From: Callorhinchus milii
Lineage: Eukaryota
Length of the DNA stretch: 64,000 nucleotides
Assembly (NCBI RefSeq): GCF_018977255.1
Contig: NW_024704742.1
Coordinates: 120,096,001-120,160,000 of the forward strand
Reading direction: 5' to 3'
The notes under the pieces were generated by a model. The model did no database searches and was not told where the DNA came from. It was given only the letters and a program-made list of their open reading frames with translations. This document shows positions 1 to 64,000 of the stretch, in pieces (the stretch's first letter is position 1; every line of letters begins with the position of its first letter). Position numbers and translations under genes: made by a program.

Positions 1-890
1 CAGAGATGAAGGTGGGAGAGGTTTTAGGGGGCCGGTAGAGGAGGAGGATTTTAAGGGAGAGGAATGAGGGGTGGGAGAGGGTGAGGTGCTCAAAGGAGGG
101 GAAAGAGCCAGTGGAGTAAGGGGATAGGGCAAGTGGTGTCCTTGAGATAAGGGCAACACCACCGCCACGGCGGTTGGGGCGGGGGATGTGGTGGGAGGTG
201 TAGCCGGGTGGTGTGGCCTCCGTGAGGGGGTAGGTGTCGCCTGGGGTGAGCCAGGTTTCTGTTAAGGCCATGATGTCAACGTTCTCATCAAGGATGAGAT
301 CGTTGATGACCAGGGCCTTGTTGCAGACGGAGCGGACGTTTTGCAGTCCGATGTGGAGGGAGCGGTTGACAGAAGGGTGTGTGGGAGGGGAGGGGTGTCC
401 AGGTTGTGAAGCTGGGGCGGGGGGCGATGGGGATAAGGGAGGAGAGGTTGGCTCCCCTGGTTGTGGGAGGGTCAAGTGGGTATAGAAGGCGAGGCGGACA
501 TAGCAGGAGAGATGCAGAGGGGCGAGGGTTTAGGGGGAGGGAGGAGTTGGGAGAGAAGGAGTTGACTCGGGTCAGAACGGCAGCCATAACGCGCACGCGG
601 GGACCGGGAGCGAGCGGTCAGATGGATGACATTAGCCCATAGGTTGGGGCTGGGGCAGCCAACCCAGCAGGAACATGGTGTTCCCTGATGCGAGCCCTAG
701 GGTGGGCGCAGAGGATTTTTTTTTTTTGCTTGCACACTCCTGAATCTAAACTATGACGTCAGCGGTTCCCCCGCTCCACCCTTCCCCCCCATCCCCCACC
801 CCGAGCTGTACTCCCTGCCGCCTCGAGCTTTATGCTACCTGAAGGCAGGCCCAGCCTCCTCCCCGCGTTCTCCTGCCACCGCCTCCCGAG
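1..890 (-). mobile_element. L2-clade LINE (family A variant): 5' UTR and part of the AP-endonuclease region; continues beyond the window start
   Basis: Sequence aligns by eye to 33175-34200 and 45895-46925 (LHIGLQNVRS..NK, MALTETWL endonuclease motifs; same TGACGTCA-containing 5' end). Confidence 0.85.
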
Positions 891-894
891 GAAA

Positions 895-1300
895 GCAGAA
901 ATAGGAGACAGGGAGGATGGAGATAGAGCAGGACAGAGCGGGGGAGTTGCATGAAGGGGGACATTTTGAGGGAGGGCCAGCTCGGGTTGGGTGGCTGCAG
1001 CCAAGATGCACACGCTGGGACGAGAAGCGGCGGGTTAATGGGACATTGTCAGCCTGCAGGAGGCTTTGGGGACTAGAGGTGGCGCAGAGTGGGGAGGCCA
1101 CTCATTGTAGGTAGTTGTTGGTCTTTTGGGTGTGACGTCACGATGATGTTACTTGTGATTTTTCTACTGATGCCCCGCTGTGCCTCGGCTCCTCCCCGCG
1201 CTGCCCCCACCCCGAATCAACGACTGCTTACCTCGATCGGGCTTTAAACACTTGGTTAGGCCTCGGCTCCTCCCTGCACTGTCCCCGCTCCTCCCTCCGA
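895..1300 (-). mobile_element. Diverged L2-like 5' fragment with GC-box/TATA-like 5' module
   Basis: Same purine-rich plus strand, TGACGTCA at about 1133, and two CCTCGGCTCCTCCC motifs with TTTAAA resembling LINE 5' ends at 23520-23640 and 29040-29100. Confidence 0.45.
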
Positions 1301-1925
1301 ATAACCTTCTAGCATAACCTTCTGTTCCTTTCTCCCGCATGTACCTACCTAGTTTTCCCATAAATACATTCCACATTCCCACTATTCTCTGTGTGAAGAC
1401 ATTTCTTCTAACTTCCCTATTTGATCTATTTGTGACTATTTTATATTGATGGCCTCTGGTTTTGGTCTCCTGCACAAGTGGAAACATCTTCCTGTGGAAA
1501 CGTCTATCATCAGGTCACCTCTTACCCTCTTTTCAGAAGAAGAGTCCAAGTATGTTCAGCCGTTCCTGATAGGTATAACCTCTCAGTTCTGGGATCATTC
1601 TTGTGAATCTCCTTTGCACCCTCTCCAGTGCCTCCACATCCCCATCTATAATGTGGGGACCAGAACTGCACACAGTATTCTAAGTGTGGTCTAACCAAGG
1701 TTCTAGAGAGGTTTACCATAACTTCCCTGCTTTTCATTTCTATCCCTCTAGAAATGAACCCCAATGCCTGGTTTGCTTCTTTTATGGCCTTATTAACCTG
1801 GGTTGCTACTTTTAGCAACCCAGGTTAATAAGGCCATAAAAGGACCTTTTACAAGGTCCCTTTGCTTCTCTACCCATTTCGATTTTTATTTTCCAGAATG
1901 TATGTGACTATTTTCCAGGATGTAT
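1300..1925 (-). mobile_element. CR1 LINE ORF2 C-terminal fragment
   Basis: ORFs 1522-1818 ([15 protein letters not shown]) and 1164-1487 (TRGH..K, FTQRIVGMWN) are typical CR1 ORF2 C-terminal motifs. Confidence 0.85.
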
Positions 1926-1984
1926 ATCACAACAACAAGCCCGTATGTTTGGCTTCATCATGCGTTCACTAGTTTGCTGGCCTT

Positions 1985-4058
1985 TTCTCATCTACAACTC
2001 ACTTCACAGTGACTTAAAGCACCCTTGAAAAAGCTATAATAATTGGTCAAACATTGGGGGAGACTCTTTTTTCTGCCTGTCAGATTGGAAAGCACCAAAA
2101 CCACAGAGTGATGGAGTGCGGAGCTAGGATCCCCGGACCCCAGTACAAGGATCAGTCAGACCACGAACCGGAGCTATCCGGTCCTTTCCTTTCTCTTTCC
2201 TTCTCTCTCTCCCTTCTCTGAGAGAGGGCCTCCTTTCAGCCCTTAAAGTAGAGAAGCATCAAGCCACAGAGCGACAGGGTGTTAAGCTGGGATTCCTGGA
2301 CCCCAAAGCGTAAAACCAACCAAGACCAGGAGCCTAATTACCCAGGGATAAGCACACCTCTCTTTCCTACTGCACATTTCCACACCCCACTGTCTAACCA
2401 ACATGGTATGGATTTCATGCAGGCTGCAGAAATGCAACCGAACATACCTGAGGGAGGATGGTGGGTAACAGACAACCACAGATAGGGACAAATTTACCAG
2501 CAGAGTCACAATATTTTTTAGGATCATCCAGACCGACCACCACTTAATATTTCTAAGGAGCACCACTGAGGTATTAAAAAGGTATTAAAAAGCAGGCAGA
2601 CAAATTGACAGAATTCATTAAACCGGCAAAACCATCAGAGGCAACTCTCTGCAAATTGTCCAAAAATGCAGAGATTTGGGCAAAAGAGACCCGTAACATT
2701 CTGATTGAACATTTTAAAAACAACTTCATTGAATTCAACGAGGAACTCAGGTCAATTGGGATGATTGAACGCAGGGAGGAGGCTTTTACGGTGGCTATTT
2801 TGTGGGCTGGAAAAATCTAAAACAGAAATGTAAAATAACAACGGCAGATCAAACAAGGCAGCACATTGGGGAACTCATTGGACCAAAAAAAATTAACATC
2901 ACCCCCATCCCCACTCCCATCAGTAAAACCAGTCCCAATCCCACCAGTAGGACCACTCACAATTAAACTACTCCCAGTCCAACCAGCCACTTTGGGAGTC
3001 CATTCCAATGTGTCTGTCCACATGGACCTAAATAATCCTCCCCGCATCTCAGGAGCAGCCACCTACACCAACGGTATCCACTAACCTTTGGGCTGTAGCA
3101 ATGGATCCCAGGGTAGGGCAGGTTCACCCAGGACCCCAGGCACCCCGAGAGTAAAGACAGCCAAGCGTGTGGCCACCCCGCCTCACTACCAGACCCACCC
3201 ACACCACTGCCCCAAGCCCAACTGAGCCACTGGTAGCCTTTCCCCACAGGTAACCACAACCCCACAACAACAGGCAGAGACGAGGCCCCTTTCCCAACAG
3301 GGAATCAATAAGGACTGTGGCACAGTGACCTTTCACAAAGAAACAGGACGAAAAAGGGCAGACTGCGTGTTAAAATCCTCCAGGCCAGTGATCATAATCG
3401 GGGATGGGAACCTTGCAAAGATAGCGGGTTGTCCCAACAAGGGCACACAAATGGAAGCCTTCCCAGAGGCAAACTTCCAACATGTGGATAACTTATTAAG
3501 CAGGACACAACCCTACCAGGAAACCCGTAAAGTGATATTCTCACTAGAAATCCATAACCGTAGCCAGCAGCCAAAGACTACAACTAAACAACTGCAGTCG
3601 TTAGTAAAGAGAGCAAGGCTAGGCTTCCCAAATGTCCAAGTTCAGGTCACGGAAATTAATTTTAGCCAAGATCTGGATAGAAAGGAGAGGGTCACACAAC
3701 AAGAAATTAATGAGGAATAAACAGTGCATCCCAGCAATCCCAGCCAATCAGTTCAGAGTAGAACAAAGTACAATGAACACAATTCCCTGGACTGAAGACA
3801 CAGCTCAGACCATGATCAAACACTGGTCCAGGCATTTAAACTAAGAAGCACAGGAAAAGCGGGACCTGGGCCTGGGGATGAATATTGTGAATGTCTCCCA
3901 GGCATTCACGCCTACGGCAGCACTAACTAGGTGACTTCTTTAGGAACCCCAAAACAACAGTAGATAGAGCAGGCAGGCAAACAAGATTCACAGCACCGTC
4001 TGGGTGGACCCCTAGGGAGGATCAGCTAAACCCCAAGCTAACACCATTTAGGGATGAG
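1985..4058 (+). mobile_element. Penelope-like element, 5' part: degenerate hammerhead-like motif, decayed ORF1 with SGNH-like esterase, start of RT ORF
   Basis: 3520-3900 is homologous to 19190-19590, which runs into a Penelope RT. 3930-4055 is homologous to 29270-29395 (minus), which runs into IVIKLADKG. RT ORF starts MNIVNVSQ at about 3878. Confidence 0.75.
3325..3844 (+). pseudogene. SGNH/GDSL esterase-like domain of Penelope-like element ORF1 (frameshifted)
   Basis: VIIIGDGN (block I, IGDSN-like), AFPEANF (FPGA-like), VIFSLEIHN (block III-like). The homologous copy at 19190-19526 has SLGIDN and DRINKIHW (D..H-like). Confidence 0.65.
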
Positions 4059-4060
4059 AT

Positions 4061-4935
4061 TCATGTGTTGAATATTTGCAAGCATTTTATCAACCCAGGT
4101 TTCGCTGAAAGACCCCGTAAGTTCGGGTTTCCTTCTATAGTTGCGCCTGGGGAAAGAGGTTGTAGCAAGTGACCTGGTAGCCTCATTATTTTTCTCGTCA
4201 TTACCTGATACAGGGTTAACCCAGTGGCTGAATGTGGAATTGACCTAAGTGCTATTAAGCACATTGGCAGCATTTGTATGTATCCATTGGGGTGATCTGC
4301 ACATTATTTTTTTAATAGCATTTTAATAGTTCAGTTCCTGCGCTCTACTACACCCGAGGATTGAGGGTGGAATGCAATGTGTAACTGCTGTTTTATTCCC
4401 ATAAATTTAGTGAGAGTATTGAAAACTTTAGTGGTGAAGTGACTTCGTTGATTGCTGTCAAGAACTATCGGTATTTCCCACCTGCAGATCACCTCACTCA
4501 ATAGTATTTGTGCCACTGTAATAGCTGTGGCAGCTCTGACAGGAAAGGCCTTGATCCATTTGGAAAATCTATCCAAAATAACCAAAGCATATTTGTAGTT
4601 GGCCGTTGTAAGGGGAAAGGGTCCAATGAAATCAATTTAAATATGTGTCCAGGGCCCTTCTGCCATTGGTGCAACTTTTAACAGAGCCCGCTTGGCAGGT
4701 GGACCGGGATTATGCTGTAAGCAAACCAGACAACGGTTAACGCGAGCGGTTATATCGTTATTGAGGGTGGGCCACCAGGTGGTGGTACGTATTTTAGATA
4801 TTGTCGAATTTACAGCCATATGTCCCCCGATTGGGTGAGAGTGGAATAATTGGAAGAAATCTTTCGCCATGTCGGGGGAACGCACACCATATCAGGTTCG
4901 TCCATGTCGTCCTGGTATAAGAGCATGGTAGTATT
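4061..4935 (-). pseudogene. pol: ERV-A integrase (disrupted)
   Basis: HSHPIGGH..CLVC zinc finger, PWTHI.IDFIGP, LDSNQRSHF, HPQSSGVVERRN. Confidence 0.9.
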
Positions 4936-4942
4936 TTTATCT

Positions 4943-5482
4943 TTATCGGCAGCTGTAAAAGTTTGATGAGCCCATGGAGTCGGAAGTTAACGGTCGACCA
5001 CTCAGATGCCATTCCCGGACAATCACGTATGGTGCGTAGGTGTTCTGTAGTGATTCGAGATCTAACTTGGAGTCAGTCGTAACTGTACAGCATTCCTCGG
5101 TCGCTGCAAAGGCTCCCCACAATGGGGCGTGGAGGGCGGAATCTCTAGCTGCAGCATCAGCCATTTTGTTACCTTCGTAGCGGGGTTCGGTGATGGAATG
5201 TGCTTTTACCTTGCCAACATGGAGGAGTAATTTGCGATTACTAAGGCAACTCCACAATTCGCGTAATAGAAGGTGGTGGGTTAATGTTCGGCCATCTGCA
5301 GAGGAAAAGTCGCGAGCTGCATACAGGGGTAGCATTCGAATCGTATTCACCACGTACGCGCTGTCGGACCAAATGTTGCATGGGTATGAAGATGTGCACT
5401 GCACGGCTTCCACCAGGACTGCGAGTTCGGCATGTTGAGCAGAGTGGGTTGTGCACGAGTATCCGAGTGTTTTATTGGGCAT
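4943..5482 (-). pseudogene. pol: ERV-A RNase H (N-terminus and tether deleted)
   Basis: HSAQHAEL, NIWSDSAYVVN, KVKAHS, GNKMADAAAR: retroviral type-I RNase H motifs. Confidence 0.9.
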
Positions 5483-5667
5483 TACGACAGCATGTGTTGG
5501 GGTGGGGACTGTCCATTATTTGAAAGGGTAATTCCTAGAAAATGGACGGATGGTTGTAGCAGCTGGGCTTTACGAGGATTGATTTTTAGTCCCGCAAATA
5601 GGAGTTTCTGTAAAACTGAATTTAAAAGTTCCAAGTGTTCTGTTTCATTGGCGAAAGTTAGTAATAC

Positions 5668-5732
5668 TGTTAGGATTTATATTTTATGTATAATGTTAGA
5701 ATCATGATAGATGTTGCGAACGGGTTAACTTT
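5668..5732 (+). repeat. 65-bp inverted copy of the start (U3 end) of the ERV-B LTR
   Basis: TGTTAGGATTTATATTTTATGTATAATGTTAGAATCATGATAGATGTTGCGAACGGGTTAACTTT is identical to the reverse complement of 12296-12360. Confidence 0.95.
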
Positions 5733-5734
5733 TA

Positions 5735-6155
5735 GGTAAGTAGTCCCCGAAAGTATACCCTACCGATTCCCACTGCTTCGAAAACCGCGAAAAGGAGGAG
5801 GTAGCGTTGTGATGAGAGCATTGCACGTGTGCTCTGTCTGTCGCATTCTGAGTTTGGTAAAAATACCAGAAGGCGGTTAAACTAGCGTTGCCGGGTACGA
5901 CCCTTAACGGTATTCCATGTTTGGTGGATGGTGGCACATGAGCACACACATAACAACTGGACACATGGTTAGTTTGTGCATGTCTATAGGTTGTAAATAG
6001 GAAAGTACTTTAGTGATTCCCATCAAAGTGGTTAGCATGGGAGTGAGTATGGGAGCCCCTGATTGGTAACATTAAGACGCCGAACACCATGTCTCCAGTA
6101 ATTCCATTCGGATCCATGCTGATACAGAAGATCCGGCGATCACTAGGTTGGTGCC
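5735..6155 (-). pseudogene. env: ERV-B env, N-terminal SU fragment (gamma-type CxxC), truncated
   Basis: Lies downstream of IN after splice acceptor TTTGTATTTTGCAG|G (about 6155). TFLFTTYRHAQTNHVSSCYVCAHVP..GIPL resembles the N-x-S-x-C-[WY]-V-C motif of gamma-type SU proteins. Confidence 0.7.
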
Positions 6156-6199
6156 TGCAAAATACAAATGTAGCATATATTCAGTCATCAGTTTATTCT

Positions 6200-9100
6200 T
6201 TCCCTTTCTTTACAGTTTTGAGTTGATTAACATGGTACCATTTAGTCGATTAAGAGGACAAAGGTGTGGCAATTAAATATACTGTCGGGCTTGCCTTCTC
6301 CAAAATTTCAAAAGGTTCTTTCCATCGCTGGGCAAAAGGAGATTCCTTTGTCCCATACACACGGACCATGACTTCATCTCCAATTTTATACTCCACATGG
6401 TTAACGGTAGCATCAAATTGTCGCTTCATGCTTTGTTTTGCCTTGCCAGTGTTTGTAGCCACAAACCTGTTGGTTTCCTGTATGACTTTAAGCACATCTT
6501 TCAGCCATGTCTCCTCTGCAGCTCCCTGCAATTTGACATTACCCTCTCGTTGTTCGAGGGCTTGGTTAGTCATCACCGCTGTACAACCTGGTAGCCTCAT
6601 TAAACGACCTGTCATAGCCTGATAGGGTGAAATGCCAGTAGTAGCATGTGGGGTGGAGCAAATTGCCATTAGACACAGTGGCAATCCCTTCATCCATTGC
6701 ATGGGGTGATCTGCACAAAATTTTGACAACAAGACTTTTAACGTTCGGTTACTTCTTTCTACTACCCCTGAGGATTGGGGATGGTATGGCACATGTAATT
6801 TGTGATCAATTTCCAACAATTCCATTATCTTGGTAAAAACTTTGCCCGTGAAATGTGATCCCCGATCACTATCCAATATACCAGGGATTCCCACCTGCAG
6901 ATCACCTCACCAACAATATGCGTGCAGCAGCGAGCGCGGTGTTGTTTTTAGTCGGGAAAGCTTCAATCCATTTTGTGAACTTATCAATTATAACTAAACA
7001 GTGTTTGTAACCACCGGCAACTGTGGACAATGGCCCAATGAAATCGATCTGAATATTGGTCCAAGGACCAGAGGGAGGGGGTGCACTCTGCAATAACGCT
7101 CGATTAGTAGATCGAGGGGGATTGTGCTGGAGGCACACGAGGCATGTCTTACATCGTTCCTGAACATCATGAGACAAACCAGGCCACCAGTCAGAGCGCA
7201 ACGACTTAGTGATGGTCTTTGAGGGACCAAAGTGACCACCAGTGGGATGCGAGTGGTATAACTGAAACATCGCATCGGCACATTCTGGGGGAATACAAAC
7301 AGTGGAGATATCATGCTTAGAATAAATGAGGACAGGGGAGGCCAGAGAGTCCAAAGGAACATACAAATGGGTATGCGCGATCCAATCATGTTGTGGCTGG
7401 GGAAGAATGTCAAGTCCAGCGAGTTGTTCCATGTGCCACTGGATCGCCTGGCCGTAAGGTGGGTATGAGTTCTGGAGTTTGATCAAATCAGTCAAGGAGG
7501 GAGAAGTTGAGATACTCATCACTGAGGCAGGGGGGGGAGAAATCCATGCTTCTCCATCAAGGGCGGACTGGCGGGCAACAACATCAGTATGATTGTTCCC
7601 TTGGGAGTGTGGCCCAGCTTTTGATGTCCTGCCACCTTACCAACAAACATCGGATGGGTGCGATGGAATATCTCATCAGCCAGACATCTCAGGAGCGATG
7701 AGTGAACCAACGCCTTACCTCCAGAGGTACAAACATTTCAGGAAGAGTACAGAGGTAGCAGTAATACAGTATTCACAACATAAGCACTGTCGGACCATAT
7801 GTTGGTAGCCACTTTGGTAGTCTGACGCACCGCCTCAACGAGTGCAGCCAACTCAGCATATTGAGCAGAGTGTGGTGTGCAGCGGAACCCAATGTCATGA
7901 TCAGGGAGGATAACGGAAAAAACGGTGAATGCCTTGCCGTCGATATGGTAGGAGGAGCCATCAATGTACACATCGGCGACAGACTGCAACGGGGAGGCCT
8001 CCAGCGGAGACTTGAGGATCCCAGTATCACTGAAGTTCAAGTACGGTAGAGGGCACTATGCGGGTCACCGTCATACAACATCATTTGGGGAATGAGGGTA
8101 GTTGGACCGGTAACTACCGATAAGTCAGCAGCAGCTTGGGTGAGAGCCCATTTAGTGAGTCTTTGCGAGGAGACGAGCGTATTGCCCGGTCGTTGTAGGA
8201 GTCAAACGGGGGTGTTCGGAGAGTGGAGAATAATCTTCTGGAGCCCAGTTATGTACTGAAAGGCGGTGACTGCCCAACACACGGCTAAGAGGTGACGCTC
8301 ACACGGGTCAAACTGTTGCTCCACACCAGTGAGAATGCGAGATATATATGCAATCGGGAGGTATCGACCTTCGGATAGCTGAGTCAGAACGGCTGCCAAT
8401 GCAGTGGGACCTCCGACAACCTCTAAGTGAAAAGGCTGATCAGGCTGGGGGTGCACCAAGGCAGCTGCCTGCATCACTGCTTGTTTAAGCTGAGACACGG
8501 CTTCTGTATGTTCATCTGTCAGTGTTCGCGGAGGTCATTGGGAATATCGCCTTTAAAGCGACAGCCGGAACACATATCCGTGCCTTCGTGGGGTTAAGTT
8601 TCAATCCGGCTTGGTGGAGTGCTTTCAGTACCAGTTCGAGGAGAGTTCGATGAGTTGCCTGAGTATCAGAAGTTATCAAAATATCATCAATATACTGGAG
8701 GATACTTGTACAATCGGAGGGAACAACATGACACAGTGCCTGAACCATACGTTTGTGGAATATGGTCGGAGAGTTATGGAAGTCTTGAGGCAGAACTGTC
8801 CAAGTGTACTGCTGACCGTTGAACGTAAATGCAAACTTATGCTGGTCCTCCGTTTTTATAGGAATGCTCCAAAATCTGTTTGAAATATCCAGGGTCGAGA
8901 ACCATTTAGCTATAGGTGGGATGTCCTTCATGAGCTGGCTCATGTCACTTACAACTGGGGCGCAGGCAGGTGTCATTTTATTAAGCTGCCGGTAATCAAT
9001 GGTTAACCGCCAAGAACCATCAGGTTTTTTAACGGGCCATATGGGGGAGTTGGTGGTGAATATCCCTTCACGAATCACTCCTTGTTCCTTTAAACTCTCA

Positions 9101-9781
9101 ATTGTGGCATGAACATAAGGTAAACTCTCTTAATAAACTCTCTTTGGGCAAAGGATATTGTTTACAGGGCTAGTGGGTGGGACCGTTAATCTCTTCAATT
9201 GTCGCTAGCCTTCCGCAATCGTGTTTGTGACTGGCTAGGAGGCCTGGAAATTGGGATAATAATGGACTAATCCAGGGGTGACTCGACTGAACTGGAGGGT
9301 ATGGGGTTGGCTTTTTAATAGCGCACACAGCATGCCGATCTAATATTTCACGGAATCGACCCTGACCAGGGCGTTGATCCAACCATAACCAATGATTAGT
9401 AAAATCGACCAGAGCGTTTCGTGAAGTTAATTCATCGCTACCAAGGATACCAGGTTCGGTGGGTAAATTTACAATGATTGGCTGTTGTAAAACAATTGTT
9501 GCAATAACGGTCAATTGGACAGGCAAAGGATGCAACACTTGGCCATACATAGAGCTACCAGACACGCCTGAAAATTCTAAACATTCGCCTGTGAGGGGAG
9601 GAAGGGGTTGATTATTCTCAAGCTTAATCAGTGTGGCCGTAGACCCTGAATCAACCAAAAGGGTATGAATGGTCCCGCACACCTTCATTGCTATAAACGG
9701 CCTTGGTCCCTCAGGTTTCCTGAAGGGAACGCATAACTGATTGTTCGTGCGACCGGTATCAGGGTGTGGGAACGAAACACG
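6200..9781 (-). pseudogene. pol: ERV-B pro-pol (frameshifted, internal deletion near 8560)
   Basis: Protease LVDSGS; RT NSPIWPVKKPDGSWRLTIDYR, LPQDFHNSP, QYIDD; tether (PIAYISR..ERHLLAV); RNase H YIDGSS/SAQYAEL/SDSAY; IN HHCC, QIDFIGP, DSDRGSHF, PQSSGVVER. Confidence 0.93.
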
Positions 9782-11399
9782 TCACTGAGGGCATGGCTGG
9801 TTCCCATCGACTATAGGCGAGACAGAACCGCCTCTGGATTCCTGATTAGAGCTAAGATGGGTCAAGATCTCTTGGGTTAAATCGCGTCTAAGATTCTTTT
9901 CCCATTGCTCATAGTTTTGCTGCTCTCGATCGGGTCTGGGATCAACATAAAAGTTCTGCTCTCTCTGTCCACGGGGTCTGCGTCCCATTTGACAGTCTGG
10001 GGCCCAATGCCCTCGTTTGCCACAAGTGTAGCAAATGTCCTTGGATCTATCACGAGGTCCCTGATTCCGTGGTGGCCCCCGGTTTGGACCATTATTCCGC
10101 GGTTTCCAAGGTTCTCGTCCCTCCACCTGACACACAATCTTTTCACTTTTAATAGTCTTCTGAATAGCCCCGTGACACCTCGTGACTGCTCCCGTCAACT
10201 GATGAAAGTGGGAGGCGGGGTCTGTGCCTAATCCCATAGCGGCGGAAGTACTCTTGCTCAATTTTCCTAACTAGCGTTTCTTGTATTTATCAGAACCCTC
10301 ACATTGTAGCTTATTGAAGGGGTTCTCCTGATTGAGATCTGTGCTCAACATTGCCTTAAGCACCTTAGCATAGTCTGGGGTTAAATCAAGGTTATCCTCT
10401 CTCTAATTAGCCCATTTCCTTACCCAAGGTTGCCATGGGGTTCCCTGAGTTAATTTGGATCCCAGCTGAGAACAATACGCTACCACGTCTCCTGGGCTCA
10501 GGGAGGTGACAGTTTCGTCTCTGCCCCCAACACACCCACTAGCGGTGGTGCGCTGCGAAATACTGACAGGACAAACACGACCCTTCACCAAGGGTGGCCC
10601 GTACCCTTCGTCCTCATGGTACTGAACCGCCTCTTCATCCAACTCTCCCCAATCTACATCATTGCCATCGGCATTTTGACAACCCCCAACTATCACAGGC
10701 TTAATGTCACATACCACCGCTACTAACGCTTGTCTCCGTCCTTTGTCTTCCTTCTCACCCTCTCTTCCCTTCCTTAGTTCTTCTAACTCCTCCTGTTCCT
10801 GCCTGCCTAATTCTTAACAACGCAAGGCAACTCAAATCATCATTTTCCTGTCTCAACCAGGCAATAATTTCCTTGTCTCGCAACTGTTCTTCCTTAAGTT
10901 CCTCGACCTCTTGAGATTTAGCAGCCGTTAGATTTAGAACAGCGCCTTGGTGATTATAAATTCCCTGCAAAGTTGTATATCTCTCGGTCACTTCTTTATT
11001 CGCACATTCCAGGTTCCTCCGCTCTAAGTCCCCGTGCTCCTTCTGAGCGTAGAAGTCCGCCTTATACTTCGCTACCTGTTCTCTTGCCTCCTCTCTCTCC
11101 CCCTCTAATCTCTCCTGTTCACGTTTCTTCTCATCCTGCCACATGCCTTTTTCCTCTCCTATCTGTTGGCAACTTACGACAGCCCAGTATTTTAACAAAA
11201 TTTTCTTCTTGCTATCACTCAACCTCCGCTAAGTGCCTAACTCTTCGATTTCTTCCACTAAAGGTTTATACCCTGTAGCGCCACCTGGTTGCGGAACATT
11301 CTCATCGTTCGCCCCCAACTTTAATTTCTGAACCCTCTTGATGAGCTTCCTTTCGAATTTCACAACCCAGTCATAACCAGCGGTATTTCCAGCGGCCAT
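9782..11399 (-). pseudogene. gag: ERV-B gag (stops and frameshifts)
   Basis: ATG at 11399 in frame with coiled-coil ORF 10755-11222; CYTCGKRGHWAPDC CCHC zinc knuckle in 9782-10261; lies between PBS and protease. Confidence 0.88.
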
Positions 11400-11450
11400 A
11401 GTCACAATTGAAACACAACAATATTCAATTACTATCGGTCCCGGTCCCTC

Positions 11451-11460
11451 TCCTTACCTG
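11451..11460 (-). promoter_or_regulatory. Putative major splice donor of ERV-B
   Basis: CAG|GTAAGG in the leader just upstream of the gag ATG; would pair with the env acceptor near 6155. Confidence 0.55.
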
Positions 11461-11808: not shown

Positions 11809-11826
11809 ATCCTGCCGACTACGCCA
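11809..11826 (-). promoter_or_regulatory. Primer binding site, tRNA-Ser
   Basis: TGGCGTAGTCGGCAGGAT, 3 nt after the LTR end ...TTTTAACA; complementary to the vertebrate tRNA-Ser 3' end ATCCTGCCGACTACGCCA. Confidence 0.9.
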
Positions 11827-11829
11827 AAT

Positions 11830-16590: not shown

Positions 16591-16622
<32 letters not shown>

Positions 16623-18442: not shown

Positions 18443-18444
18443 TT

Positions 18445-46924: not shown

Positions 46925-46926
46925 AC

Positions 46927-53362: not shown

Positions 53363-54284
53363 TTAGTAGTTTAAAGCCCTTTCTACCTCCCTATTTATTC
53401 GCGTAGCCAGGACATTTGTCCCAGCCCTATTTAGGTGGAGCCCATTCCTTTGGAAAAGCTCCCATCTTCCCCAATACTCGTGCCAGTGGCCCATGAATTG
53501 GAATTCCTGCTCTCCGCACCACTCTTTTAGCCAGGCATTCAGATCTATGATCTTCTTTTGCCTGTACCAATTAGCTCCTGGCTCAGGTAACAGTCCCGAT
53601 ATCATCACTTTGGAAGTTCTATTCCTTAGTTTAATTCCCAATTCCCGGAACTCGCTCCTTAACTCGTCCCTACTGGTCCTACCAATGTCATTGGTCCCTA
53701 TATGTACCATTACGATTGGATCCTCTCCCTCATGCCTCAAATTTATCTCCAGCCCGGCGGTGACATCCTTCACCCTGGCCCCAGGAAGACAACAGAGTCT
53801 TCTTGTCTCCCTGCTACGGCTACAGAAAACTGTATCAGTCCTCTCGACTGTCTCATCCCCAATAAGAATTACATTTTTAACCTCCTGCACAGGGGTGTTG
53901 GGGTCAGTTTGCCCGTCTTCCTCGCAGATTTCCTTGTCCACACAGGTTGCCAATATTTCATACCTGTCAGACAAGGCTAAAGTCTGGGATTCTTCAGCCC
54001 CTCTCTTTCGGGAACGCTTGCCTGCCCGCCTGACTGTCACCCAGTCATGTCCGTCGCTGCTACATTCTTCTTCCTTGGGACTCAGGGGAGTGTCCGGCTC
54101 CAGGATAAAGCTGTCCAGGAAGTTTTCTCCACCCCTAATGCTGCGCAGTGTCTCCACCTGAGACTCCAGCTCAGCTACTCTCTCTGATTTCCAGACACTT
54201 GCGGCAGACGAAGTCGCCCGGACTTAAGGCACCCTCCATTGACTTCCACATGTGACAGACCTTGCAGTTTACCTGCCACACCAT
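53363..54284 (-). pseudogene. CR1 ORF1 (Cys finger and SGNH esterase)
   Basis: CKVCHMW..FVCRKC, ILIGDE, CLPGARV, VHIGTND, NGLHLN. Confidence 0.9.
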
Positions 54285-54924
54285 CTTCACAAACTTTATA
54301 TAGATACAAAGATATATAGCCTGCCCCCACTTCCCCCTCTGCACCTAATTCCCACTCTCACCAAATTCCCTCACACTCTGGCCTCGCCTCACTCCGGACG
54401 TAGCTCACTCTGGGCTCTCAGCATGTTTCCTCTCTCTCTAGGATTGCAAAATATTCCCTTGCTTCCTCGCCTGCCACATTCAAAAAGATCGCAGATTGCT
54501 GTCTCTGCAGCAGTTTCATTATATTTTGCGCAATTCCGAAAATTTTACTCTGTTTCAAACTGTTGCCAATTGTGTCGTAAACTTCCAACCAACTTCAGCA
54601 GTCTTGGTATTCAATTCTGGTTCTTTCTGCATTTTACTTTTCAATCCGTATTCAAGCTCGGAGTCCGTTTCACTCCAGGTTCCATTTTCACTTCTGAAAG
54701 TGTTATTTGTCAACCAGCCAAATTTTTCTCTTACTCTCGGCCTCAAGCTTTCCCTGTCCCTGGTCTCAGTCTCCTTCTCCTTTTTTGAGGGTTTTCACCC
54801 TCTTCCTTTTTTCCCGGGCCCTTTTGTCGGCTGCCTGCCACTGTCCTTGTGGTTTATGCAGTAAACAAATCCACAATGCTTTGCGTCTTCTTTGGTTCAT
54901 TCCACATGAACTCTGAGTTAGCTT

Positions 54925-55477: not shown

Positions 55478-57247
55478 CTCCGCTCATTCACTCCCTCTGC
55501 ACAAACCGCCTCCTTAAGGCAAACACAACTTCCCCCTCCCTCATACGTACCCTTCCCAACTCTCCACTCCCCCCACACTCCACAGCCATCTGTCCCTCTG
55601 CTCCAAACGCCTGCTCCTAATGGGCGATTTCAACCTCCACCTAAACTCCCCTTGCACCACATCTTCTGACTTCACTGCCCTCCTCTCCAACCTAAACCTC
55701 ACCCTTCACATAAATTCACCCACCTACAACCATGGCCATGCCCCCGTAATCACCCATGGCCTTGACATTTCCGACTTTAGCATAGTGGACAAGGCTATCT
55801 CGAACCACTTCCTCATCTCCTTCTCCTCTCACATTCCTCTCTCCTCCGCCAAGCCCTCAACCATACTCTACCGCCCTGTGACCCTCACAAAGGCCCTCAC
55901 ACCGTCCGATATCCTATCCCTCTGGCGTTCCACCACCCACTACCTCCTCCATGAGCCCCCTCAGATCTCCTCAATCTTCACATCCAATGCCAAGTGCGAG
56001 GAGGTCATGGATTTATTTTCATCCAAAATACATAACATCCGCCAGGCAGCCTCATCCTCCTGCCTCTTGTCCCCCACCACCACCCCCTCTCCGTCCCCCT
56101 CACCCCCCCATCATCAGCTCCTACCACGATTCCCATCCTACATTCCTTCCTCCCCATCTCTCCTTCCTCCCTCTCACCCACCATCACCTCAATGAAACCC
56201 ACCACCTGCTACCTCGACCCCCTCCCCACCAACTTGCTGGTCACCCAGCTCCCCCTCCTCTGTCCACTACTGGCTGATGTTATCAACCAATCCCTCTCCT
56301 TCCCTGCCCCCCTCAAAGCTGCTGTCATCACTCCCCTCCTCAAAAAACCTTCCCTAGTTCCCTCAAACCCTAGCCAATACCGCCCTATTTCAAACCTGCC
56401 CTTCCTCGCAAAAGTCCTAGAATGTGTTGATACAAATCAACTCTGCGCATACCTCTCCTCCTACTCCCTCTTCGAACCTCTCCAATCCGGTTTCCACCCT
56501 GCCCAGTACAGAGACTGCGCTTGTGAAAGTCTTAAGTGACATCCTCTCTATCTGTGACCAGGGCTCCCTCTGCCTCCTTGTCCTCCTGGACCGCTCCAGC
56601 GCTTTCGACACAGTCGATCACGCCATCCTCTTCCACCGCCTTTCTTCCGTCATCCACCTCAGTGGGACTGCACTCACCTGGTTCGAGTCCTATCTCACGC
56701 ACCGCCAGCAGTACATCTGCACAAACGGCTTTTCCTCACGCTCTCACCCGGTTATCTGCGGGGTAACCCAAGGATCCATCCTTGGCCTCCTCCTCTACAT
56801 GCTCCCTCTTGGGGGTGTCATCCGCAGACATGAAGTACATTTCCATTGCCCGTCTCCACCAATATCTCACTCCAAAAGCCACTGAAACCCTGCTCCATGC
56901 CTTTGTCACCTCTCGGCTGGACTACTCAAATGCCCTCCTCGCCGGTCTCCCCTCCACTAGCATTCACAAAATCCAGGTCATCCAAAACTGCCTTCTGCAC
57001 TCTTACCCGCACCAAACTCCGCTCCACGATAACCCCAGTCCTTGCCAGACTGCACTGGCTGCCTGTCCCAAAGAGGATCAACTTCAAGTTCCTCACCTTT
57101 GTCATCAAATCCCTCCACTCCTCTGCACCCCCGACCTCTCTGACCTCCTCTCCTCAAAACAGTGCCCGTTGCCTTCGCTCCACCGGGTCTCGTCTCCTCC
57201 TTGTCCCCCAAATCCTCTGCTCCACCATCGGTGGCCGTGCCTTCAGC
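55478..57247 (+). mobile_element. L2 family B, decayed, 5' portion (resumes at 60858)
   Basis: [33 protein letters not shown]; internal deletions. Confidence 0.88.
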
Positions 57248-60200
57248 AACAGCAACAAGATTCCATTTATTGAGCGCCTTTCACGTCGGGATGACGTCCC
57301 AAGGCGCTGTACAGTTAGGTCAGGACCCGAGCATTGGGGGGGAAATGGTCAGGGTGAGGGGAGGGAAGGGAGGGAGCGAGGAGGGGGTAGAGAGTCGAGA
57401 GGGGAGCTGAAGGCACTGTCAAAGAGAAAGGTCTTGAGACCGGCCTTGAAGGAGGAAAGGGAGGAAGCGAAGGCACTGGGGGATAGAGTTCCAGAGCCTA
57501 GGGTCTGAGAGGCTGAAAGCCCGGCCACCGATGGTAGGGCGGTTGGGGCGGGGGATGTGGAGCAGACCGGAGCCAGAGGAACGGAGGGTACGGGCAGGCA
57601 GGTAGGGGGATAGTAGGTTGGAGAGGTAGGAGAAGGCAAGGCCGTGAATGGCCTTGTAGGTGAGGATGAGGATCTTGAAATCGATCCTCTGGGGGATGGG
57701 GAGCCAGTGGAGGCGAGCGAGGGTGGGAGTGATGTGGTCCCGAAGCCTGGTGCGGGACAGCACACGAGCTGCAGAGTTCTGAATGACCTGCAGGTTGTGG
57801 AGGGAGGTGGCGGGAAGGCCGGCGAGGAGAGAGTTCCCATAGTCCAGCCTTGAGGTGATAAAGGCGTGGACCAGAGTTTCAGCAGCGTGAGGGGTGAGGT
57901 AGTGCCGTAGTTTGGCGATGTTTCGGAGGTGATGGAAGGCGGTGCCAGTTGTGGCGCGGATATGAGGAAGAAAGGACAGCTCAGGGTCGAACAGAACCCG
58001 AGGTTCCTGACTGTCTTTGAGAGGTGGAGAGTGCAGCCTTGGATGCTGATGCTGTCAGCGCCTGAGGTGCGGAGGCGCTGACGTGAGCCAATCAGGAGGG
58101 CCTCAGTTTTGCACACTTTGAGCTGGAGAAAGTTATCTCTCGTCCAGGACTCAATGTCGGACAGGCAGCTGTCAGGACATCGGTGGTCGTGGAGTTGAGG
58201 GTAGAGGAGGAAAGGTAGAGTTGGGTGTCATCCGCATACATGTGGAAGTTAACCCCATGTCTGCGGATGATGTCACCAAGGGGGAGCATATAGAGGGTGA
58301 AGAGGAGGGGACAGAGCCTTGAGGGACACCGCACGAGACAGTGCGGGGGCCGGAGGAAAAAACATTTGTGGAGACAAAGTGAAGACGGTGGGAGACGTAC
58401 GACCTAAACCACTCAAGGACAGGGCCTTGAAGGTTTAGGTGGGAGGACAAGCGGTGGAGTAGGATAGCGTGGTCGACCGTATCGAATGCTGCCGATAGGT
58501 CGAGGAGGACGAGGAGGCAGAGGGAGCCCTGGTCACAGATGGTCAGGATGTCATTGGTGACCTTGACCAAGGCAGTTTCTGTGCTATGGGCAGCACGGAA
58601 ACCCGACTGAAGGGGTTCAAATAGTGAATGGTTGGAGAAGAAAGAGCGCAGCTGGGAGGCGACAACTCGTTCCAGGACCTTGGACAGGAAGGGGAGGTTG
58701 GAGATTGGCCGGTAGCTTGATAGCTGCGACGCATCAAACAAGGGTTTTTTTTAACGTGGGAGTGACGGTGGCAGTTTTTAATGGAATGGGAATAGAGCCA
58801 GAGGAGAGGGACAGGTTGACGATGTCGGTGATATGTGGGGCAAGAAAGTGGAGCTGGGAGATAAGGAGTGGAGTGGGGATGGGGTCAAGGGAGCAGGTGG
58901 TTGGTTTCAGGGATAGGATGAGTTTGGTGGGTAGCAGTCGGAGTGTGGGAGTGAGGGGTTGGGGGGTTGGTGGATGTTGGAGGGGAAGTGACCGCGGAGC
59001 GAATTCCCTTGATCTTGGATTCAAGGAAATCCAGCATCTCCTCGCAGTGAAGGTTGGAGGAGATGATCTGCGCGGGGTGGCGGGGGGGATGGAGGAGTTG
59101 GCATGTGGTAGAGAACAGTAGCCTGGGGTTGTCCTTCGCCTCCAGGATTATCCTGGCGTAGAAGGACGATTTGGCCGAGGCTAGAGTGGAGCGGTAGATT
59201 TTGAGGTGGTCCAACCAGATTTGTCGGTGGACCGTTAGGCCAGATTTGACCCAGGTGCGTTCAGCGGTCCGCACCTGGCTCTTCAGTGAGCGGAGGTGGG
59301 TGGTGAACCAGGGGGAGGAGCGAGAGTAGGAGACAGTACGGGAGGTGATAGGGGCAAGAGTGTCAAGTGTGGAGGAGAGGGTGTTGTGGAGGAGGGTGAG
59401 AGCAGAAGAGGAGTCGGTGAGGGTTGAAGGCCAGAGGGAGAGGAGTTCAGAGGACTCCAAGGCAGCGGTTAGGGATTGAGGAGGTAACTTCTTCCAGGGG
59501 CGGTAGAAGATGGTGGTGGGTCTGGTGGAGGTGGGGTGGTGAAGGAGATGAAGTGGTGGTCGGAGATGGTCTTGTCGGTGATGGTGACATCCGAGACACT
59601 GAGGCCCCGGGTGATCACCAAGTCTAGTGGGTGGCCGTGACTGTGAGTGGGGGAGTTGATGTGGAGGGAGAGGTTGAGCGAGGAGAGCAGCGAAGAGAAG
59701 TCTGAGGAGATGGAGCAGGAGGGGGTGAAGTGCAGGTTAAAGTCGCCCAGGATGATGAGGCGATCAGAGCAGAGGCAGAGAGATGTGAGAAGTGTTGAGA
59801 TATCAGAGATAAAGGTGGGAGAGGTTTTAGGGGCCGGTAGAGGAGGAGGATTTTAAGTGAGAGGAAGGAGGGGTGGGAGAGGGTGAGGTGCTCAAAAGAG
59901 GTGAAAGAACCAGAGGAGTAGGGGGATAGGGCAAGTGGTGTCCTTGAGATAAGGGCAACACCACCGCCACGGCGGTTGGGGCGAGGGATGTGGTGGGAGG
60001 TGTAGCCGGGTGGTGTGGCCTCCGTGAGTGGGAAGGTGTCGCCTGGGGTGAGCCAGGTTTCCGTTAAGGCCATGATGTCAACGTTCTCATCAAGGATGAG
60101 ATCGTTGATGACCAGGGCCTTGTTACAGAGGGAGCGGACGTTTTGTAGTCCGATGTGGAGTGAGCGGTTGACAGAAGGGTGTGTGTGGGGGGAGGGGGAT

Positions 60201-60857
60201 CCAGGTTGTGAGGCAGGGGTGGGGGAAATGGGGATGAGGGAGGAGAGGTTGGCTCCCCGGGTCTGTGTCCGGGGTGGCTGGCGAGTGTGGTGGGGAATGG
60301 GGCAGTCGGTGTGGCTGCTGCTGGACAGCCAACGGCGAGTGCCACGGTGAGCCCGGCGGAGGATTCCCAGGCTGGAACAGAGGGAGGTTGTGGGAGGGTC
60401 AAGTGGGGATAGAAGGCGAGAGGGACGGAGAGAGAGGAGGAGAGAGCGGGAGAGATGCAGAGTGGGGAGGGTTTGGGGGTAGAGAGGAGGGAGGGAGGGG
60501 GTGAGGGTCATAGCGGCAGCCATATTGTGCATGCGGGGACCGGGAGCGAGCGGTCAGGTGGATGGACACATTATCCCATAGGCTGGGCCTGGGGCAGCCA
60601 ACCTAACAGGACCATGGTGGGCTCTGATGTGAGCCCTGGGGGGGCGGGTGGTGTGGGGCGCAGAGGTTTTTTTTTTGTTGTTGCGCACGCACACTTCTGA
60701 AAACTACAACTATGGCGTCAGCGGTTACCCCGCTCCGCCCCCATCCGTTCCCTCCTCAGCCCCAACACCCTGCTAGCTGGGCTCCCTCCCGCGTCGGGCT
60801 TAAGTACCTGAGAAGGTAGCCCCAGGCTCCTTCCCGCGCTGTCCTGGCGCCGCTCCC
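57248..60857 (-). mobile_element. L2 family A variant, full length, inserted in L2-B with a 10-bp TSD
   Basis: TGCCTTCAGC (57238-57247) and TGTCTTCAGC (60858-60867) flank it; ORF begins MHNMAAA at 60532. Confidence 0.93.
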
Positions 60858-61086
60858 TGTCTTCAGCCACTATGCCCTGAGGCTCTGGAACTCCCTTCCT
60901 CACTCCCTTCGTCTCACTCCCTCTCTTCCTATTTTTAGGTCTCGGCTGAAGACCTTTCTTTTTGACCGCGCCTTTGGTCACCTTCCTCCCCCTCCCCCTG
61001 GCTCGGCCCCAGGATCCGTTACTGTGAAGCGCTCTGAGACGCCATCCGGCATGGAGGGCGCTATATAAATCCAAGTTGTTGTTGTT
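60858..61086 (+). mobile_element. L2 family B 3' end
   Basis: LWNSLP..LKTFLF, 3' stem-loop, (GTT)n tail. Confidence 0.9.
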
Positions 61087-61226
61087 AGTGCAGTAGTCCT
61101 GTTGAGTTCAGGCTCAGAGTTTCAAATGTGACGGCCGGAAGTGACGTCACGTGGCAGTCGATTGATGATTGTTTGGTTTGGCGGGAGAGTCAGAAATGGC
61201 CGTGTTGGTGCCTGGACCAGCCGAGG

Positions 61227-61926
61227 TCACAGATCCCACGCTGGCCCCGCACACGACCGGTAGCCTTGGTCCCCGCGGTGGATCTGGTCACCGCTGGGGC
61301 CGTCGGATCCCACGGCGGTCAGTGTTATCCTCGAGCGCCGCTCCAAGCCTGTCCGCCATGGGAGGCCTTGAGCTCCAAAACTCCAGGCTCCGGTCACACT
61401 CCGTTCCCACTCGCCCGGCTGATTCCAGCAGCGTTGATGTTCAGGCATTGGGTTGTAGGTTTTTTCCCCTGTTTTGGTAATCCTGTTTGACGACGTCCGA
61501 TGCCATTTTCTGAGGCGTAGATACTGGTACTTGCTTTGCAGAGTCTCCACACTTACAGTACAACACTGTACTAATATTGATTGTAAATGGTTCCTTTTAG
61601 TACTGCATGTGGCTATAGTTGTAATACCCACTACTGCAAGTTCCTTTTTGATCTGTCTGCCAATTGGCTGATTGCACTTCATTAATTTACAGAAAATCTC
61701 TATAGATGGTTCTAGCACTAACCAATGTAGCCAAACACGCACAGCAAGACTGGCATCAGAGCGATCAGCGAGCATTGTCAGCCCGCAGACATGGCGGGGG
61801 CTAGGGGAGACAGCACAGAGGGGAAACGGATTGGCACTCATTGCTTTGTTTGGACCAAAGCCAGAGAAGGAGAGGGAAGGTGTTAGGTAATTTTCCGTTT
61901 CTACCTTCTTTGTATACTTCTGCAAT
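61227..61926 (-). other. Unidentified open reading frame that continues at 63961-64000 across an LTR insertion
   Basis: 232 codons open; the rejoined frame reads ILIGCRRIACPA-LQKYTKK without a stop; no motif recognised. Confidence 0.3.
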
Positions 61927-63960
61927 TGGATGTTAGTTCATTCAAGCAATAAACACAGTCACACAGTTCAATCACTAAGAGTACATTTATTCAACTAACT
62001 CAGGACCAGTCAGTTCAGTCTGGTACAGAGTTAGGGTCGTAGCTTCACCAAGCTGACGACCCCGTTGTGGGATTCAACAATGGCATTTATACAAGTATGG
62101 GGAGGATCCTTCTCCTCCAATCGTTAGATTTGGTCATAGGTGACAATGTGGTCGAGATATAGGATGTGTATTGGGCAACTATCCATTGTCTCATACTCCA
62201 AGGCTGCGGTTAGTCTGCGCATATATCTGTTGATTCGGGCTTACTTCCTTCATGGAAACAGTCGTAACTGGTTCCATGCAGTTGAGCTGTACGTTTCTAA
62301 AATCAGATAACACAGCCTGCCAAGCTTCTCATTGCAGGGTTTACTAAAGGTTATAACTTTGTGCCTTTTTATCCATCAGAAGGTGGACGGGGTGGTAAAG
62401 GAGGAGGTCAGGGAAGAGGTGAGGAATAGAAATAAAAAATGTATACTTAAGTCTGTGGAAGATTTGAAAGCCGGCACGCTGAAATGACGTCACACGATGT
62501 TTGGGCCATTGGTCCAAGTGGGAGATTTCGAAATGGTGTCTCCAAGCCTGGAACCTCCTCACCTGGAACACTGAACCCTCGGCCCCTCGCTGGTCACTGC
62601 CTGTTGGCTCACTCCCACCGTCACATTTCCCCTCTTGGTAGATTGTAATCATAGCAAGCAAGCCATCAACCAGATGATATCCCATTTTCCCCTAAAATGA
62701 GGTAGGAAATAATAGCCACATATACTCTTGATCTCTACTACCAAGATCCATAGCCACTTGCTGAATCTTGCTTTCCTGTCCTTAAGGTAGATTTAGCCAT
62801 AGGCAATTGAACACAGACTGATGATCATCCTTCTCAGACTGGAATCAAGAAAATAGTCGCTTGAGTTGGTTTGGGGCCACTGTGACTGCCATCTGTTTAT
62901 GTTTGAATTTGAATAACAATGTCAGGAATGTCAACAACAACAAATTATATTTATATAGCGCCTTTCAAATCGGGAGGACATCGCAAGGTGCTGGAGAATC
63001 AGGGATTGGACCCAAGCAGGGGGTTGGGATCAGGGTGGAGTGGAGGGCAGGGAGGCTAAAGGTAAGAAGGGTATTGAGACATGCCTTGAAGGAGGCAAAG
63101 GAGGAAGCAAGGCTAAGGGACTGTGGGGGCAGAGAGACTGAAGGCCTGACCACTGATGGTGGGGCTGGCAGGGGGTGTGGAGCAGACAGGAGTCTGCTGA
63201 GCGGAGGGAGTGGACAGATCGATGTGGAGTTAGCAGATCATAAAGGTAGGGAGGAGCAAGGCCGTGGGGGCTTTGAAGGTGAGAACAAGGATTTTGAACT
63301 CAATCTTGGGGGAGCGGGAGCCAGTGGAGCCGGGCAGGGGTGGTAATGGGGTCACAGAGCCTGGTGCGGGAAAGGACACGAGCTGCAGAGTTAGAAAATG
63401 AATGAATGTGTAATAACATCGCCTCCTGCATTGCCTGATACCATAGCTGGTTAAAAACTTGTCTTTGGTACTTGTTCACTGTTCTACACTGTAACAGGTT
63501 TAGCTGGTCCTGTTCTGGGTAGTGATGCCAGCAGTTGTGTCTTCCTCTTTCTTGTCTCCAAACACTATCGAGACTGGCTTTTTACAGATAATTATATATC
63601 CTGTACTTCATGCAGTTAGTCGCATAAGCCACCCCGACTTTCATCACCTGGTCACCCTTAACTACAGCTAGAACATTCTATACTATCTCAATTCCGCTTA
63701 TCAATCACACACAGCCTAATCTTACTCAACCTTACTTCTTGTTTTTCCTGCCCTCACGTGACTATGTTGGTCAGTTTCACTGACCAGTTCTGCAATCTAC
63801 ACAATCATCTTGATATTGCAACTAACATCTTTTGATATTCAAGCAGTTATCTTCCTTAGGCAATATCACACGATGAAGCAATGACATGAGTTGTTTTAAT
63901 CACTACACTCGCGCAACACAACATTCTGTTAATATAACTACATAATATATATATTTCTCA
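61927..63960 (-). mobile_element. Long solo LTR-like element (about 1.57 kb excluding a nested L2 piece)
   Basis: TG...CA ends, 5-bp TSD GCAAT (61922-61926 and 63961-63965), TATAAA near 62085-62090, AATAAA at 61986-61991; AT-rich start resembles the ERV-B LTR start. Confidence 0.75.
62931..63393 (-). mobile_element. Diverged L2 3' fragment
   Basis: (AAC)n tail, stem-loop remnant, SFKACLNTLL; ends at [12 protein letters not shown]. Confidence 0.8.
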
Positions 63961-64000
63961 GCAATGCTGGGCATGCGATCCTTCGGCAGCCTATCAGTAT

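Follow-up and report, generated by a model that had tools for sequence, protein, structure and literature searches.

A bounded, one-strand transposable element domain in Callorhinchus milii as a candidate uni-strand piRNA cluster

Described one-strand systems and the shark locus

Transposable elements (TEs) that share one orientation are characteristic of several described systems, among which the PIWI-interacting RNA (piRNA) clusters of Drosophila, mammals and other vertebrates stand closest to the Callorhinchus milii (elephant shark) locus considered here. The window, i.e., the whole stretch of DNA analysed, comprises 64,000 nucleotides (G000:C1:120,096,001-120,160,000, where C1 is the contig carrying it in a genome of 991.5 Mb) without any N; coordinates below are window positions, with negative values to the left of base 1. 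The window forms about half of a larger strand-biased domain, its right-hand and presumed 3' half, and this domain probably represents a TE trap or a piRNA cluster of the uni-strand, flamenco-like kind, with reading from left to right. An earlier note on the window had proposed such a candidate: its one-way TE trap layout, a skew beyond background and the lack of a coding-gene intron to explain it are borne out below, whereas the transcript and its piRNAs are what we infer.

In Drosophila, flamenco and flam-like clusters are, like the shark domain, large, TE-dense and ERV-rich (endogenous retrovirus) one-strand blocks in which fewer sense insertions stand near the presumed 5' end, and the flam-like clusters were first found via strand-specific TE content in 100-kb windows (PMC10643416; all papers cited here are used for what the available parts of their text report). 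The bias of flamenco, however, is confined to Gypsy elements and serves somatic follicle cells (PMC10643416), whereas that of the domain extends over ERVs, L2, CR1 and Penelope; clusters syntenic with flam span 227-1,085 kb (PMC10643416), against 139 kb for the shark domain, which is known from sequence alone. In mammals, piC-DoG clusters, a pre-pachytene type located downstream of genes (PMC11615739, PMC13252550), carry dense antisense long interspersed element (LINE) and ERV sequence behind a last exon for tens to more than 100 kb, and the same layout is found here, with a plus-strand SGT-like last exon at -67.76 kb and an antisense array from -66.7 kb. The piC-DoG host gene is intact and supplies the promoter (PMC11615739), whereas here the upstream gene is dead, the L2s in its body are sense, and the first exons of this gene and of its head-to-head neighbour were not found. 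The locus is therefore neither flamenco in the strict sense, because the bias covers L2, CR1, ERV and most Penelope sequence instead of Gypsy or env only, nor a strict piC-DoG with an intact host promoter, because three decayed exons are all that was found of the upstream gene; six plus-strand LINE 3' ends also precede the switch in orientation.

The antisense bias of intronic LINEs and ERVs (PMC1794541, PMC3517506) follows the same logic, in which sense copies are purged for their poly(A) and splice signals. Such bias, however, depletes TEs and requires a host gene, whereas the domain concentrates TEs without one; the intronic type is visible instead in the left flank of the domain (24/31 L2 ends). 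Single-strand intergenic precursors, as proposed here, are the usual form of vertebrate clusters (PMC7618676, PMC5340914), although the median length in axolotl is 10 kb (PMC7618676) against 138.5 kb for the shark domain, and the clusters of Xenopus tropicalis and those of pachytene type are mostly non-repetitive (PMC5340914) whereas the domain is ~90% TE. For the same reason the locus does not resemble an A-MYB-driven pachytene cluster, which would have a promoter bound by A-MYB and be mostly non-TE. The piRNA machinery and A-Myb have both been reported in elephant shark (PMC7618676, PMC5635590), including Piwil4 and the cytoplasmic piRNA genes except Pnldc1 (PMC7618676). No published chondrichthyan piRNA cluster was found in a literature search that left supplements, including cluster tables, and most subscription papers outside its scope.

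A bounded domain of one-strand elements

The flanks were sampled over 200 kb on the left and ~37 kb, as separate samples, on the right. TE coding bases and protein matches were assigned to strands by tblastn, and LINE 3' ends were counted automatically, one per insertion. The resulting domain measures 138.5 kb, from -66.7 to +71.8 kb (C1 about 120,029,300-120,167,800), and thus continues 66.7 kb to the left and 7.8 kb to the right of the window. It is ~91% TE, and 93.8% of its stranded bases are minus. The share of the window (1..64000) follows this pattern, its elements lying on the minus strand while the proposed precursor would be plus. On the right, a plus-strand CR1 piece stands at ~+74 kb.

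The bias is confined to the domain and crosses family borders. L2 3' ends number 21 minus and 2 plus inside it against 10 and 27 in the flanks (left 7/24, right 3/3; Fisher p 8.8e-7); when the order of the 62 L2 and CR1 ends was shuffled 20,000 times, a split as strong as the observed one came up once. Orientation is also the same among families that have no DNA in common, with minus/plus protein matches of 31/0 for ERV, 15/0 for CR1, 17/3 for Penelope and 74/8 for L2; by hand count, all 11 orientable ERV or long terminal repeat (LTR) units in the domain are minus (p 0.001). No ERV or Penelope protein match was obtained in 133 kb of the left flank or in ~29 kb of right samples. Short interspersed elements (SINEs) behave differently, their 3' ends being divided 2/4 (minus/plus) in the domain and 29/23 outside, without a difference. 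The minus share is graded, falling from 98.7% in the left half to 88.9% in the right one, which is what a left-hand start of the precursor would predict; a model of unistrand clusters has sense insertions tolerated in the direction of the 3' end (PMC10643416). Signal motifs follow the same direction (AATAAA, 44 plus/79 minus; GGTRAG, 158 plus/66 minus), which fits a plus-strand transcript but is given little weight, as these counts follow TE orientation.

The genome at large provides a second background. A 27-base motif of the L2-A 5' end (positions complete for C1 and for exact matches) has 153 genomic copies that are unbiased in direction (75 forward, 78 reverse), whereas the 6 that fall in the domain are all co-oriented; as the domain makes up 0.014% of the genome, 0.02 would be expected there, and L2 5' ends are enriched ~280-fold. 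The strand skew thus lies far outside both the local level (21/2 vs 10/27 L2 ends) and the genome-wide one (75/78). The insertions are independent: among 12 young L2-A copies of the domain, identity to the nearest neighbour is 92.8-99.6%, all 12 differ in 3' flank, and in self-alignments no junction between two elements recurs at a second place. The L2-A at 57,247 follows the direction of the domain, not that of its plus-strand host. Young members of the captured families also occur in other parts of the genome, namely 147 further L2-A 5' motifs, matches of 95-99% for the solo LTR family and, for an ERV end, 527 first-look candidates.

Element content and strand bias of the window

TEs occupy 90.9% of the window by hand-drawn extents and at least 83% by BLAST masking, in which the library was derived from the window itself, so that self-matches count; 19 gaps of at least 200 bp total 10,862 bases, and several of them are LTRs. 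The wording of a near-total TE content in the earlier note is therefore fair, and the bias that it described for ERVs, CR1 and most L2 copies is recovered in the coding bases: 7,749 minus and 0 plus for ERV, 4,266 and 0 for CR1, and 15,274 and 2,076 for L2, while Penelope has 774 and 1,173. The window is made up of L2 (a young family A and older families B and C), CR1, ERV pieces, Penelope-like pieces and a tRNA-derived SINE. Minus-strand open reading frames (ORFs) carry all Pfam matches to ERV and CR1 proteins, i.e., reverse transcriptase (RT), RNase H, integrase, protease and zinc knuckle of ERVs, and RT, endonuclease (EN) and esterase of CR1. In 3' ends, the minus/plus division is 10/1 for L2, 3/0 for CR1 and 2/2 for SINEs. 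A hand count of non-SINE pieces gives 29 minus versus 4 plus with p 1e-5, a value that is optimistic, as pieces split by later insertions were sometimes entered twice.

Insertions of very different ages share the orientation, with young L2-A copies 92.8-99.6% alike and old L2 pieces matching the young reference at ~67-75% identity. Plus-strand exceptions agree with those that the earlier note had listed: two Penelope pieces, one SINE and a SINE head, one L2-B copy and an inverted L2-A segment. A plus-strand transcript would run antisense to the ERV, CR1 and L2 pieces and to most of the Penelope pieces, much as the earlier note had supposed. Apart from TEs, Pfam scanning of 71 window ORFs returned DUF6330 on a 27-bp tandem repeat and a sub-cutoff WD40_alt, the same repeat dominated tblastx of the window gaps, and Rfam and ARAGORN found two SINE heads and nothing else.

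The left edge and a candidate start site

Orientation switches between -69.3 and -66.7 kb, and ahead of this switch (~-80 to -69 kb) six consecutive LINE 3' ends all lie on plus. The switch interval contains the TATA-bearing part of a solo LTR at L017:39-1728 (-69,962 to -68,272; L017 denotes -70 to -60 kb), which faces plus by motif order and has inverted termini and a 4-bp target duplication. It is one of a small family in which the TATA box is conserved in 4/4 aligned copies, whereas an AATAAA near the right end of two other aligned copies is absent here. Its plus-facing direction is opposite to that of all 11 orientable ERV/LTR units in the array. Since plus-strand, and hence sense, LINE ends lie within the body of the SGT relic, the promoter would be a later one than that of SGTB, for which the solo LTR is a candidate; its features suggest, but do not prove, a transcript start.

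No CpG island above threshold was found from -200 to -60 kb. Three loose MYB-like heptamers occur in 4 kb around the switch, as many as chance would give. Of 12 sequencing runs listed for L016:500-5800, none is recorded as RNA. Run X5, the type of which is a guess, contributes at least 8 pieces to L017 (unstranded contigs of 151-526 nt, depth 2-6, 0-3 differences), of which two fall on the last exon and 3' part of the relic and six where the array begins. Bins with depth on L017 number 27/30 for X5, 15/30 for X6, 13/30 for X7 and 10/30 for X8, where low cover does not count as evidence.

Origin of the bias and rival explanations

The domain is a real, strong and bounded feature and a good candidate for a uni-strand cluster, and the following course of events would explain it. 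A long plus-strand RNA polymerase II transcript would start at the left edge (~-69 kb, probably in the solo LTR) and extend over ~140 kb in the direction of the TRAPPC13 end. Insertion of further retroelements would occur in either direction; sense LINEs and ERVs, which carry poly(A) and splice signals, would shorten the precursor and be purged, and antisense copies, even full-length ones, would be retained because they add antisense sequence that may be processed into piRNAs against live families. Short SINEs transcribed by RNA polymerase III would be neutral. A long plus-strand precursor under selection seems, on balance, the simplest account of a bias that is bounded, cross-family, length-enriched, graded and SINE-sparing. 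Several observations weigh against this reading. Four plus-strand pieces of at least 1 kb persist in the window, the right boundary is only bracketed (71.8-74 kb) from partial sampling, and the motif was selected on the window copies, which make up four of its six matches in the domain, so that two are independent. With 53 of the 153 motif places (one-mismatch matches) lacking a position, the genome-wide scan for similar domains was limited. At the left edge, the orientation of the LTR rests on motif order, as no primer-binding site orients this family, and loss of a hexamer in a copy diverged by ~20% is common by chance. X5 may hold DNA and covers the left edge, not the window; among the 15 X5 joints listed there was no GT-AG joint, and they link repeat pieces.

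A long plus-strand non-coding or read-through transcript might also have shaped the locus without any piRNA function, with selection removing sense insertions, as in the usual bias of introns and downstream regions, and TEs piling up after gene loss. We consider this unlikely but worth weighing, as transcribed DNA is well known to show antisense bias (PMC1794541, PMC3517506), constraint would have eased once SGTB and neurolysin had died, and the left flank itself shows an ordinary bias of opposite sign (L2 ends 24 plus/7 minus). That milder bias arises because much of the flank lies within a minus-strand leucine-rich repeat (LRR) gene, and it serves as a control: in such a flank, TE fragments are mostly short and scattered and ERV protein matches are absent, whereas the domain is ~90% TE with its ~280-fold excess of L2 5' ends. 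A functionless transcript thus explains the sign of the bias and not its density, and offers no reason to purge sense copies so strictly. More doubtful still is a graveyard of TEs in DNA of low recombination and without a transcript, where co-orientation would come from same-direction nesting and from loss of near-identical inverted pairs. Many insertions are indeed nested in earlier TEs, and inverted pairs of young L2-A copies (93-99.6% alike) could be unstable, but this predicts agreement within families, not among ERV, CR1, L2 and Penelope. Moreover, an inverted L2-A (41896-42908) survives 340 bp from a minus L2-A of 92% identity, an inverted Penelope pair 91-97% alike survives 11 kb apart, the L2-A at 57,247 opposes its host, and elsewhere in the genome, among the matches listed, motif neighbours less than 200 kb apart form three co-oriented and three opposed pairs.

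The remaining explanations are less probable again. An SGT-family relic on the plus strand at the left edge raises the thought that the domain might be intronic to a protein-coding gene of that strand, whether SGTB or one so far unrecognised. The last-exon match at -67.76 kb, however, precedes the array, which excludes an SGTB gene spanning the domain, and a spanning TRAPPC13 is excluded as well, this minus-strand gene ending at +75.5 kb; with the last SGT exon to its left and the end of TRAPPC13 to its right, the array is intergenic, between converging 3' ends. Pfam matches in 92 + 71 ORFs are essentially TE and retroviral domains, although short exons could escape. The flanking host gene that the earlier note wished to see sought therefore does not account for the bias, which the intron of no protein-coding gene found explains, and an intronic origin is very improbable. 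We give just as little credence to minus-strand read-through from TRAPPC13 or TE promoters, in which the TEs would be sense and a source of TE RNA or sense piRNAs. The 3' end of TRAPPC13 points into the domain, and the minus strand is faced by many LINE 5' ends that carry GC and TATA boxes; known biases, however, are antisense relative to the transcript, the minus strand of the domain has more AATAAA than the plus strand (a count not independent of TE orientation), and the long plus-strand exceptions cluster on the TRAPPC13 side. Least credible of all is multiplication of a few insertions by tandem duplication or mis-assembly: several L2-A copies are 98-99.6% identical, but no two-element junction is repeated, the 3' flanks of the young L2-A copies differ in 12 of 12 cases, and the window is without N.

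For the uni-strand, plus-strand precursor favoured here, a more specific history is possible, though we hold it only tentatively and think it rather doubtful as a whole: a cluster of flamenco scale would have been born in the ruins of SGTB and neurolysin, a gene pair conserved among vertebrates, the solo LTR, free of a poly(A) signal, would have become its promoter, and the gap before TRAPPC13 would have expanded to a 140-kb antisense archive of ERV, L2, CR1 and Penelope that is still filling. If true, this would be a datable cluster birth by capture of an LTR promoter, in a lineage without described clusters in the literature searched. It would bear on how piRNA clusters arise and on whether vertebrates have flamenco-style traps. 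The sharp edges, the candidate promoter, insertions layered from ~67% to 99.6% identity and flanking genes that are neighbours in human as well make the birth of the locus testable by synteny. Cross-family strand skew together with LINE 5'-end enrichment could also nominate clusters in other vertebrates without data beyond the genome.

Gene context: apparent relics of SGTB and neurolysin beside a live TRAPPC13

To the right of the domain stands minus-strand TRAPPC13, the last exons of which occupy C1:120,171,481-120,176,297, with the last coding exon at +75.5 kb. A plus-strand B-box exon at ~+106 kb fits TRIM23. To the left, a motif scan found two LRR exons on the minus strand at -171.0 and -197.7 kb, which we take to be ERBIN-like. 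In human, neurolysin and ERBIN are the next neighbours in the gene row. A single 204-kb interval of the human genome contains TRIM23, TRAPPC13 and SGTB (PMC11061283, PMC13677749).

Between these genes, SGTB and neurolysin appear to be dead at this locus, where decayed exons only are recognised; the apparent loss is a separate, checkable finding. Relic SGT-like exons occupy L016:4150-5310 on the plus strand, with the last exon at L017:2244, and the array starts ~1 kb behind this last exon. The exons at -75.85 and -74.75 kb are weak alone, whereas the third, at -67.76 kb, is the best of 2,313 acceptor-anchored peptides compared with the SGTA tail from -200 to +75.8 kb (score 58, next 38). Relic neurolysin exons lie on the minus strand at L015:3400-6400: one at -83.6 kb, with three stops, matches neurolysin with 44.9 bits against 35.5 for thimet oligopeptidase, and further pieces stand at -84.7, -85.6 and -86.5 kb. 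No relic was found of the first ~280 residues of neurolysin or of the first SGT coding exon. On C1, family searches for the SGT dimer domain and for M3 peptidases were both negative, SGTA_dimer matching only C21; two other M3-peptidase loci exist on C4 and C16, and neurolysin may thus have relocated elsewhere in the genome. In homologue searches, the named vertebrate matches were SGTA and THOP1, and intact SGTB or neurolysin in other sharks was not confirmed. A published account of the loss of either gene was not found among the papers searched, with supplements and most subscription papers outside the search.

Pfam gave no match for 91 left-flank ORFs of at least 85 aa. The 92 ORFs outside the repeat library in -70 to 0 kb have retroviral or envelope-like matches, except for a sub-cutoff PH inside an LTR and a sub-cutoff DUF4156; of the right samples, 50 of 55 ORFs were scanned. 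L016:9550-10000 and L017:1730-2870 represent an old tandem duplication (~74% identity) of the last exon of the SGT relic with its flank, and the solo LTR stands between both copies.

Individual elements of the window

From left to right, the window opens with the 5' parts of two nested L2-A copies, the young one inside the older (1..889, minus), followed by a LINE 5'-end cassette and a CR1 3' piece (900..1860, minus), at the truncated end of which lies a near-perfect 64-bp palindrome (1779-1842). The first plus-strand exception is a Penelope-like piece at 2300..4054, 91-97% identical to a minus copy 11 kb leftward. A broken ERV pol with integrase, RNase H, RT and protease region (4055..13500, minus) is split by a second broken ERV (5660..12364, minus) that carries a gag zinc knuckle, protease, RT, two RNase H domains, integrase and a minus-strand primer-binding site and interrupts the RT gene of the other provirus. 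The 3' end of this inner ERV is an inverted 80-bp copy of the LTR start (96% identical) without a direct 3' LTR, and the 80-bp segment is oppositely oriented in several other genomic copies; the arrangement resembles an aberrant integration in which both ends are alike.

A young, 5'-truncated L2-A (13653..16170, minus) is followed by an ERV gag-like region and LTR without a Pfam match, with a primer-binding-site-like stretch on the minus strand (16171..18850, minus). The second plus-strand Penelope-like piece carries RT (19190..20900) and has an inverted arm next to it (20901-22356, minus). Further right stand an L2-B 5' part (22639..23639, minus) and two tandem CR1 copies (23646..29100, minus), the second near full length with esterase ORF1, EN and RT. 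A tRNA-derived SINE on the plus strand lies within an LTR-like stretch (29880..30190), and a plus-strand SINE head at 34605-34643 separates a full-length L2-A (30564..34202, minus) from an L2-B 5' part with an ERV integrase and RNase H piece (34645..36150, minus). A young L2-A at 36592..39319 (minus) has EN and RT in one 913-aa frame.

A Penelope-like piece with a GIY-YIG domain (40630..41880, minus) adjoins the inverted L2-A segment on the plus strand (41896..42908), after which come a full-length L2-A (43250..46925, minus) and a SINE (46929..47246, minus). The unclassified stretch 47247-48434, which has 60 bp in common with 54840-54898, contains a GC-rich 27-bp tandem array of 21.7 copies (47365-47951) with open frames on both strands. 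A near-full-length CR1 (48435..54420, minus) hosts a young L2-A insertion (49171-51287, minus). The plus-strand L2-B (55484..61085) is split into 55484-57247 and 60861-61085 by a full-length L2-A that lies along the domain direction, opposite to this host (57247..60857, minus). An old L2 3' piece closes the series (62932..63395, minus).

L2-A and L2-B, and apparently one CR1 as well, have in common a 5'-end cassette with a GC box and a TATA-like element, which occurs at 810-895, 1225-1300, 23560-23645, 29020-29105, 34125-34210, 35060-35210, 46840-46930 and 60770-60865; the second CR1 5' end is without it. Either a 5' module is shared or swapped between LINE clades, or an L2 5' end abuts the CR1. 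At L019:5130-5570, two additional tandem copies of the first 95 bases of an L2-A 5' end are followed by an L2-B 5' end.

A solo LTR with a 5-bp target duplication lies at 61882..62379; its minus orientation is taken from a primer-binding site beside another copy (L003). Five co-oriented matches to this family occur together with two co-oriented L2-A 5' motifs at C29:507,000-560,000, where LTR and L2-A are on opposite strands, so that this block is TE-dense but, by the present reading, not uni-strand.

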